DNA of 21,534 bases. It comes from Pseudomonas phage vB_Pae_LMQSRe25-1. Where the stretch lies: sequence record PV759139.1. One strand, given 5' to 3'. The position numbers were made by a program, and so were the translations under genes. The stretch's first letter is position 1; the number at the start of each line of letters is the position of its first letter. The notes under the pieces are model-generated. The model did not search any database. It had not been told where the DNA came from and saw only the letters and a program-made list of their open reading frames with translations. This document shows, in pieces, positions 13,944 to 14,721 of the stretch.

Positions 13944-13964
13944 GGGAAATGAATTCGGACAAGC

Positions 13965-14008
13965 GGCACATTGTGCCTATTGCGCATTAGGCACAATGTG
14001 CCTAATCT
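13965..14008 (+). promoter_or_regulatory. Anti-CRISPR operon promoter with two operator palindromes
   Basis: Seen directly. IR1 is GGCACATTGTGCC at 13965-13977. IR2 is TTAGGCACAATGTGCCTAA at 13987-14005, a perfect 19-bp palindrome. Putative -35 TTGCGC at 13980-13985, 17-bp spacer, -10 TAATCT at 14003-14008. IR2 covers the spacer and -10; IR1 abuts the -35. Matches the Aca1 operator arrangement described for JBD30-type phages (from memory). Confidence 0.65.
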
Positions 14009-14055
14009 AGCGTCATGCCAGCCACAACGGCGAGGCGAACCCAAGGAGAGACACC

Positions 14056-14346
14056 ATGACTAAGACCGCACAAATGATCGCTCAGCAGCACAAAGATACT
14101 GTCGCAGCGTGCGAAGCCGCCGAAGCCATCGCTATCGCTAAAGATCAGGTATGGGATGGCGAGGGCTATACCAAGTACACGTTCGACGACAACAGCGTCC
14201 TGATCCAGTCGGGCACTACCCAGTACGCGATGGATGCCGACGACGCAGACAGCATCAAAGGCTATGCGGACTGGCTGGACGACGAAGCTCGCTCCGCCGA
14301 AGCGTCGGAGATCGAGCGTCTGCTTGAATCGGTCGAGGAGGAGTGA
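14056..14346 (+). CDS. acrIF2: Anti-CRISPR AcrIF2-like protein (acidic DNA mimic; 96 aa from ATG 14056, 90 aa from internal ATG 14074)
   Basis: RBS AAGGAGAG at 14043-14050. 23 Asp/Glu out of 96 residues, net charge about -15. Sequence from MIAQQHKDTVAACEAAEAIAIAKDQVWDGEGYTKY... matches my recollection of D3112 gp30 (AcrIF2). Located between Mu G and I, the known acr hotspot. Confidence 0.75.
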   Translation: MTKTAQMIAQQHKDTVAACEAAEAIAIAKDQVWDGEGYTKYTFDDNSVLIQSGTTQYAMDADDADSIKGYADWLDDEARSAEASEIERLLESVEEE

Positions 14347-14351
14347 AAGTC

Positions 14352-14510
14352 ATGAGCACCCAGCACACATACGAACAAATCGCTGAAGACTTCCGCCTGT
14401 GGGGCGAGTACATGGACCCCAACGCAGAAATGACCGAAGAGGAATTCCAGGCCCTCTCCACCGAGGAGAAGGTCGCCATGCAAGTCGAGGCATTCGGTGC
14501 TGAAGCCTGA
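14352..14510 (+). CDS. acrIE4: Anti-CRISPR AcrIE4-like protein (52 aa: MSTQHTYEQIAEDFRLWGEYMDPNAEMTEEEFQALSTEEKVAMQVEAFGAEA)
   Basis: ATG 14352 lies 5 nt after the acrIF2 stop; GAGGAG 9 nt upstream. Below the ORF-track size cut-off. N-terminal half resembles AcrIE4 / the AcrIE4-F7 N-domain as I remember it. Overlaps the aca1 start. Confidence 0.7.
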   Translation: MSTQHTYEQIAEDFRLWGEYMDPNAEMTEEEFQALSTEEKVAMQVEAFGAEA

Positions 14511-14721
14511 CGCCTCCAACCACAATCCAGACCCGCGCTACCTGCGCGGGCTGCTCAAGAAAGCTGGCATCAGCCAGCGGCGCGCAGCCGAGCTGCTCGG
14601 CCTCAGTGACAGGGTGATGCGCTATTACCTGAGCGAGGACGTCAAGGAGGGCTACCGTCCCGCGCCGTATACCGTCCAGTTCGCCCTGGAGTGCCTGGCG
14701 AACGACCCGCCATCTGCGTGA
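14497..14721 (+). CDS. aca1: Anti-CRISPR-associated HTH repressor Aca1 (74 aa from GTG 14497)
   Basis: HTH 'ISQRRAAELLGLSDRVMRYYLS'. Sequence '...DPRYLRGLLKKAGISQRRAAELLGLSDRVMRYYLSED.KEGYRPAPYTVQFALECLANDPPSA' matches my memory of Aca1. No ATG in frame; GTG 14497 overlaps the acrIE4 3' end by 14 nt. Confidence 0.8.
   Translation: MLKPDASNHNPDPRYLRGLLKKAGISQRRAAELLGLSDRVMRYYLSEDVKEGYRPAPYTVQFALECLANDPPSA

Follow-up and report, generated by a model that had tools for sequence, protein, structure and literature searches.

An acrIF2-acrIE4-aca1 operon of canonical type between genes G and I of a D3112-like phage of Pseudomonas aeruginosa

The DNA analyzed is a stretch of 21,534 nucleotides from Pseudomonas phage vB_Pae_LMQSRe25-1 (PV759139.1), referred to below as the window, and the locus of interest is a three-gene anti-CRISPR (acr) operon located between the homologue of the Mu morphogenesis gene G and the Mu-like protease/scaffold gene I. 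Casadabanvirus genomes, with Baskent_P5, JD024, MP29 and GEC_PNG14 among the matches, cover 94–96% of the 21.5-kb window at ~98% identity, and by these matches the window is that of a Casadabanvirus, a D3112-like, Mu-like temperate phage of Pseudomonas aeruginosa. The operon consists of acrIF2, acrIE4 and aca1. An earlier reading of the same letters, made from the sequence only, had placed three tightly coupled genes between the end of G at 13943 and the start of I at 14940, and all three lie where it put them. The gap between acrIF2 and acrIE4 is 5 nt, acrIE4 and aca1 overlap by 14 nt, and each of the three genes is preceded by a Shine-Dalgarno sequence.

The first gene encodes a protein of 96 residues that matches PDB 5YHR ('Anti-CRISPR protein 30') from end to end with 100% identity. 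From residue 7 to residue 96 it is also identical to the AcrIF2 chains in PDB 5UZ9, 6B47 and 8DFS and to the 90-residue gp30 of D3112, the founding member of the family; the solved structures show AcrIF2 both by itself and in complex with Csy. The protein scores 199.8 bits on the Pfam model PF25704 (AcrF2), for which the cut-off is 27. Its recognition as AcrIF2 (D3112 gp30) in the sequence-only reading is thus borne out. The composition is that of an acidic DNA mimic, with 23 Asp/Glu and 7 Lys/Arg among the 96 residues; the number of acidic residues had been given correctly, and the net charge, previously put at about −15, is −16. AcrIF2, to which the protein is identical, has been shown to bind the Csy complex and thereby to block type I-F CRISPR-Cas (PMC6538845). 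The motif AAGGAG is found 7 nt upstream of the start codon, ATG 14056.

The second gene encodes an acidic protein of 52 residues (13 Asp/Glu, 2 Lys/Arg) that differs from D3112 gp31 by a single substitution, Y5H (51 of 52 residues identical). It scores 135.6 bits, far more than the cut-off, over the full length of Pfam model PF25703 (positions 1–52), which was built on 'anti-CRISPR protein 31', and it is related to the N-terminal domain of AcrIE4-F7 (PDB 7VZM), with 35 of 52 residues identical and an E-value of 5e-19. These matches agree with the earlier assignment of the frame to AcrIE4. Inhibition of the P. aeruginosa type I-E system by D3112 gp31 has been demonstrated by plasmid expression (PMC3993853), and mutagenesis of AcrIE4-F7 identified five residues that are needed for binding to Cas8e, Glu19, Tyr20, Asp22, Asp30 and Glu31 (PMC8887544). 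Four of the five (Glu19, Tyr20, Asp22 and Glu31) are retained in the protein described here, and Asp30 is replaced conservatively by glutamate. The 90%-identity protein cluster that contains the 52-residue AcrIE4 also has a member of 388 residues from the Logan/ENA assemblies, which may reflect either a fusion or an error of gene calling.

The third gene starts at a GTG codon, with GAGG 6 nt upstream, and encodes a helix-turn-helix (HTH) protein of 74 residues. Both the overlap of this frame with the 52-residue gene and its identification as Aca1 had been proposed from the sequence, and both hold: the protein is identical to JBD30 Aca1 (PDB 7C0G and 7FA3) at 69 of 72 positions, with an E-value of 2e-44. 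The residues through which JBD30 Aca1 contacts DNA (Arg22, Gln32, Ser42, Arg44, Val45, Arg47, Tyr48, Tyr49 and Arg59) are conserved without exception. The only difference from the D3112 copy is Ser37, which is a glycine in D3112 and corresponds to position 42 in JBD30 numbering; the S42G variant of JBD30 Aca1 binds DNA as well as the wild type (PMC8633003). JBD30 Aca1 represses transcription from the acr promoter (PMC8633003). The features expected of an Aca1 protein are present here, since the gene is the last of an acr operon and the cognate inverted-repeat operators with GGCAC half-sites are found in the promoter region.

These operators lie in a leader of 112 bp between G and acrIF2, a region that the sequence-only reading had passed over. 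A conserved putative promoter has been described at the 5' end of all acr clusters of this type (PMC3993853). By comparison with reference operator sequences taken from PMC8633003 and PMC9410881, operator IR2 is an exact match to the 21-bp JBD30 IR2 that was used for isothermal titration calorimetry and for co-crystallization with Aca1; no second exact match occurs in the window, and shuffled sequences gave none. Operator IR1 differs from the JBD30 IR1 21-mer at one position, the central spacer base, which is C in JBD30 and T here. IR1 binds Aca1 with a dissociation constant of ~53 nM and titrates Aca1 away from IR2 (PMC8633003). Putative −35 and −10 hexamers, read by eye, are separated by 17 nt; IR2 spans this spacer and overlaps the −10 hexamer, an arrangement that is consistent with repression by promoter occlusion. 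The base at 13985, the last of the putative −35 hexamer, falls within the 4-nt gap that separates IR1 from IR2. It varies between phages (C in this window, T in D3112, A in JBD69 and in the published JBD30 probe) and might tune promoter strength. The coordinates of all features are summarized in Table 1.

Table 1. Positions in the window of the acr operon, its control region, the flanking backbone genes and a distant ribozyme
Feature	Coordinates	Strand	Evidence
Mu G homologue (virion morphogenesis / tail completion), backbone left flank	13476-13943	+	Pfam PF05069 Phage_tail_S, 89.7 bits; TIGR01635, 54.3 bits
Conserved acr promoter/leader, 5' end of cassette	13944-14055	+	95/106 identical to JBD69 acrIF1-aca1 leader despite a different downstream acr gene
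Aca1 operator IR1, AAGCGGCACATTGTGCCTATT	13961-13981	.	GGCAC half-sites intact
Putative -35 hexamer TTGCGC	13980-13985	+	Reading of the sequence by eye
Aca1 operator IR2, ATTAGGCACAATGTGCCTAAT, repressing site	13986-14006	.	Exact JBD30 IR2 match
Putative -10 hexamer TAATCT, overlapping the right arm of IR2	14003-14008	+	Reading of the sequence by eye
acrIF2, 96 residues	14056-14346	+	PDB 5YHR, 100% over 96 residues; PF25704
acrIE4, 52 residues, Y5H allele	14352-14510	+	D3112 gp31, 51/52; PF25703
aca1, 74 residues, GTG start, HTH repressor	14497-14721	+	JBD30 Aca1, 69/72
Backbone leader of gene I, outside the insertion	14738-14939	+	Follows G directly in Gregale, 183/195 identity
Long hairpin, arms AACGGGGTTAGCCGC...GCGTTAACCCCGTT	14759-14807	+	139-nt region folds at -47 kcal/mol, z = -1.96
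Tandem AACCCCGTTAG x2, overlapping the hairpin	14799-14820	+	Also present in Gregale
Mu-like protease/scaffold gene I, right flank	14940-16046	+	Pfam PF10123 Mu-like_Pro, 341 bits
Type II hammerhead ribozyme, full length	4942-5013	+	Rfam RF02276, 67.3 bits (gathering score 37)

The extent of the insertion is defined by Gregale (OR683403), an acr-less Casadabanvirus in which the stop codon of G is followed directly by the homologue of the window from 14738 onward (183 of 195 positions identical). This empty site places the right edge 16 nt beyond the stop codon of aca1, so that the cassette measures ~794 bp, from 13944 to ~14737. The sequence-only reading had proposed a 0.8-kb insertion separating G from I; the insertion itself is shown directly by Gregale, and the extent needs correction, as the insertion ends at ~14737 and the 202 bp from there to gene I are backbone sequence. 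The GC content, 0.57–0.58 over both acr genes compared with 0.65–0.69 in the flanks, together with the empty site shows an inserted cassette, and it agrees with the published view that the variable region was acquired horizontally (PMC4378225). MP29 lacks exactly the segment corresponding to 14340–14500 of the window, which is the acrIE4 gene, and no other module; acr genes are thus exchanged as independent units, while the promoter and aca1 around them stay in place. The mark of a Casadabanvirus acr locus, a variable cassette between the Mu G homologue and gene I, is therefore found here, as judged from the Pfam assignments of the two flanking genes and from Gregale and MP29. The G/I junction, named as an acr hotspot in the sequence-only reading, is indeed the place where anti-CRISPR genes have been described, and that of D3112 is among the nine arrangements published (PMC3993853). 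Taken together, the region is almost certainly a canonical acrIF2-acrIE4-aca1 operon, carried on a horizontally acquired cassette of ~794 bp at the G/I boundary of a D3112-like phage, as far as sequence comparison can tell.

Gene content, gene order, coupling and operators can be read from the window, and the mechanism proposed from them relies on what has been published for proteins of identical or nearly identical sequence. A strong sigma-70-type promoter in 13944–14055 would fire upon entry of the phage DNA and would produce, early, a single message for acrIF2, acrIE4 and aca1. AcrIF2, as an acidic mimic of double-stranded DNA, would occupy the lysine-rich Cas8f/Cas5f/Cas7.6f site of the type I-F Csy complex and block the binding of target DNA; the published site is the Cas8f:Cas5f tail beside Cas7.6f (PMC6538845). 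AcrIE4, which is likewise acidic, would inhibit the type I-E system of P. aeruginosa. Aca1, translated last, would accumulate, dimerize and bind both operators; bound at IR2, which overlaps the core promoter, it would shut the promoter off, with IR1 acting as a competing site that tunes the repression. In the absence of Aca1 repression, constitutive acr transcription harms the phage, as described for JBD30 (PMC8633003).

Several points weigh against parts of this interpretation. The Cas8e mechanism was demonstrated on the N-terminal domain of AcrIE4-F7, with its 35 identical residues of 52, and not on stand-alone AcrIE4, and the D30E replacement lies at the interface concerned. The −35 and −10 hexamers are our own assignment and match the consensus weakly; a consensus promoter scan of both strands of 13800–15100 called no sigma-70 site at the thresholds used. 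Additionally, the literature yielded no assay for the H5 form of AcrIE4, and residue 5 is a tyrosine in both the assayed D3112 gp31 and AcrIE4-F7. It could be argued from this that the acr operon is real but that Y5H AcrIE4 is weakened or inactive, in which case the cassette would protect against type I-F systems only. Residue 5, however, is not among the Cas8e-contact residues Glu19, Tyr20, Asp22, Asp30 and Glu31, the acrIE4 frame is intact with its Shine-Dalgarno sequence retained, and H5 is the commoner allele (524 public contigs, compared with 76 for the D3112 sequence), which argues for selective maintenance; a weakening or loss of type I-E inhibition is very improbable. Another reading, in which the small differences from the assayed D3112 and JBD30 loci (H5 of AcrIE4, C at 13985, T in the middle of IR1) measurably alter how potent the inhibitor is, or how strongly or when the acr genes are expressed, is doubtful, if somewhat less so. 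If true, these differences would represent a natural tuning of a known system.

The start of acrIF2 allows a further alternative, namely that translation truly begins at ATG 14074, giving the 90-residue form of the D3112 annotation, and that the 96-residue frame is over-extended. The shorter form is that of D3112 gp30, of the Pfam model and of three PDB entries, but no Shine-Dalgarno sequence precedes 14074, whereas ATG 14056 follows AAGGAG at the distance given above and aligns with the start codon of acrIF1 in JBD69, at the point where the leader shared by the two loci ends. The 96-residue form is also the one used in JD024, GEC_PNG14 and PDB 5YHR. On these three grounds ATG 14056 appears to be the likelier start, and the 90-residue form is unlikely; the choice leaves the identity of the inhibitor unchanged. 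A more radical alternative is that the three small frames make up some other accessory module, such as a toxin-antitoxin pair or a regulatory moron, in which the acidity of the first two products is incidental. The fold of Aca1 does resemble those of HTH antitoxins such as HigA2 and MqsA (PMC8633003), and Pfam places Aca1 weakly in HTH_24, with a score of 17.5 bits that is below the cut-off. Against this, both upstream proteins are identical or nearly identical to inhibitors with experimental validation and solved structures, and cognate Aca1 operators are present upstream; these sequence identities effectively refute such a module, for which the chance that is left is minute.

The two genes that border the anti-CRISPR cassette are late genes. 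The Mu G homologue is the counterpart of D3112 orf29, which is labelled 'similar to phage Mu protein G' in the D3112 record, and the start codon of gene I, ATG 14940, is the one annotated in GEC_PNG14 and JD024. The D3112 record likens its flanking genes to the Mu proteins NP_050635 and NP_050636, and the consecutive accession numbers fit an adjacent position of G and I in Mu.

The leader of gene I contains a long hairpin and a tandem repeat (AACCCCGTTAG x2), both of which are kept whether or not a phage carries the acr cassette, Gregale being an example without it; these elements therefore belong to the leader of gene I rather than to the acr operon. In Gregale the 5' arm of the hairpin carries an A-to-G change that would keep a G-U pair. 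The hairpin was considered as a terminator of the acr operon and was rejected, as it lacks a downstream T-run and is present in Gregale. It could be part of the late promoter/leader of gene I, and it may possibly insulate gene I against read-through from the acr promoter. A terminator scan of 13800–15100 returned only three terminator-like sites, all on the minus strand and inside coding sequence, which is no more than expected by chance. Searches for other RNA elements were likewise negative: Rfam at a permissive threshold gave only two microRNA matches at chance level in 13900–15000, no tRNA gene was detected in or near the locus, and a search for RNA anti-CRISPRs in the form of solitary repeat mimics, with the I-F, I-E and I-C repeats of P. 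aeruginosa as queries, reached at best 17–20 of 28–32 bases, again at chance level. In the same leader, JD024 (14612–14728) and LPB1 annotate a minus-strand frame of 38 residues, which is probably spurious.

Elsewhere in the window, which by the annotation of JD024 reaches from the transposase genes as far as the tape-measure gene, three stretches (3225–3418, 4210–4671 and 5015–5244) have no homology to JD024, a phage that is otherwise 95–98% identical; judged by this lack of homology, they are variable slots for accessory genes. A full-length hammerhead ribozyme (Table 1) was found in the early/middle region, just upstream of a gemA-like gene, in an intergenic position between a stop codon at 4941–4943 and an ATG at 5030. 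The homology with JD024 breaks just past the 3' end of the ribozyme, at the third of these stretches. Conservation of the hammerhead extends to 123 phage records, of which most are from Casadabanviruses and one each from a Ralstonia, a Chromohalobacter and an Alteromonadaceae phage, and none of the listed phage records that carry it annotates a hammerhead.

Comparison with public sequences indicates that the locus is already known, a textbook acr operon at its usual site, with nothing new about it. Over 13900–14960, a segment of 1,061 bp that includes the cassette, the DNA is 100% identical to Nox (PQ533660) and GEC_PNG14 (PP836137) and 99.9% identical to JD024 (NC_024330), Baskent_P5 and F_MX560sp. 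Nox, GEC_PNG14 and JD024 encode the same three proteins, and the locus of Nox and GEC_PNG14 shows no difference at all; outside this segment the window is only ~98% identical to these relatives, with the three short non-homologous stretches mentioned above in the case of JD024. Among public contigs, a look-up of exact sequences found the 96-residue AcrIF2 in 318 and this Aca1 in 213, in addition to the counts for the two AcrIE4 alleles already given. The sequence-only reading had suggested a new inhibitor family member should either small protein differ from the described ones. That suggestion has to be abandoned, as AcrIF2 is 100% identical to a described inhibitor and the Y5H form of AcrIE4 is already present in JD024 and in the 524 contigs.

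The value of the locus is a practical one and concerns annotation, since many deposited records label AcrIE4 and Aca1 'hypothetical' or truncate them. AcrIE4 appears as 'hypothetical protein' in four annotation tables, those of D3112, GEC_PNG14, JD024 and the D3112 RefSeq entry (the homologue of gp31 that matches the Pfam model). The annotation of D3112 shortens acrIF2 to 90 residues and aca1 to 'orf32', a hypothetical protein of 34 residues (2218–2322 in NC_005178); aca1 is truncated in the same way in MP29 (1057–1161). NCBIfam has no model for any of the three cassette proteins.

D3112 is the reference closest in organization, sharing the gene order, the G/I position, an identical AcrIF2 and the same promoter and operators, with 98.4% DNA identity over the 1,061 bp. 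The two differ by 17 nucleotides, which result in Y5H in AcrIE4, G37S in Aca1 and a change from T in D3112 to C at 13985; relative to D3112, the substitution in Aca1 restores the serine of JBD30. The acrIF1-aca1 loci of JBD30 and JBD69 have in common with the locus described here the promoter and leader, IR1, IR2, aca1 and the insertion site, but they carry acrIF1 in place of acrIF2 and acrIE4. Their Aca1 also differs at the N-terminus (79 residues, compared with 74 here), because in the present operon aca1 starts within the end of acrIE4. AcrIE4-F7 of Pseudomonas citronellolis is homologous to AcrIE4 in its N-terminal 52 residues, with the acidic residues that contact Cas8e largely conserved. 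In contrast to AcrIE4-F7, which is a natural fusion with an AcrIF7 domain, AcrIE4 stands alone in this phage, and the type I-F function would be provided by the separate acrIF2 gene.

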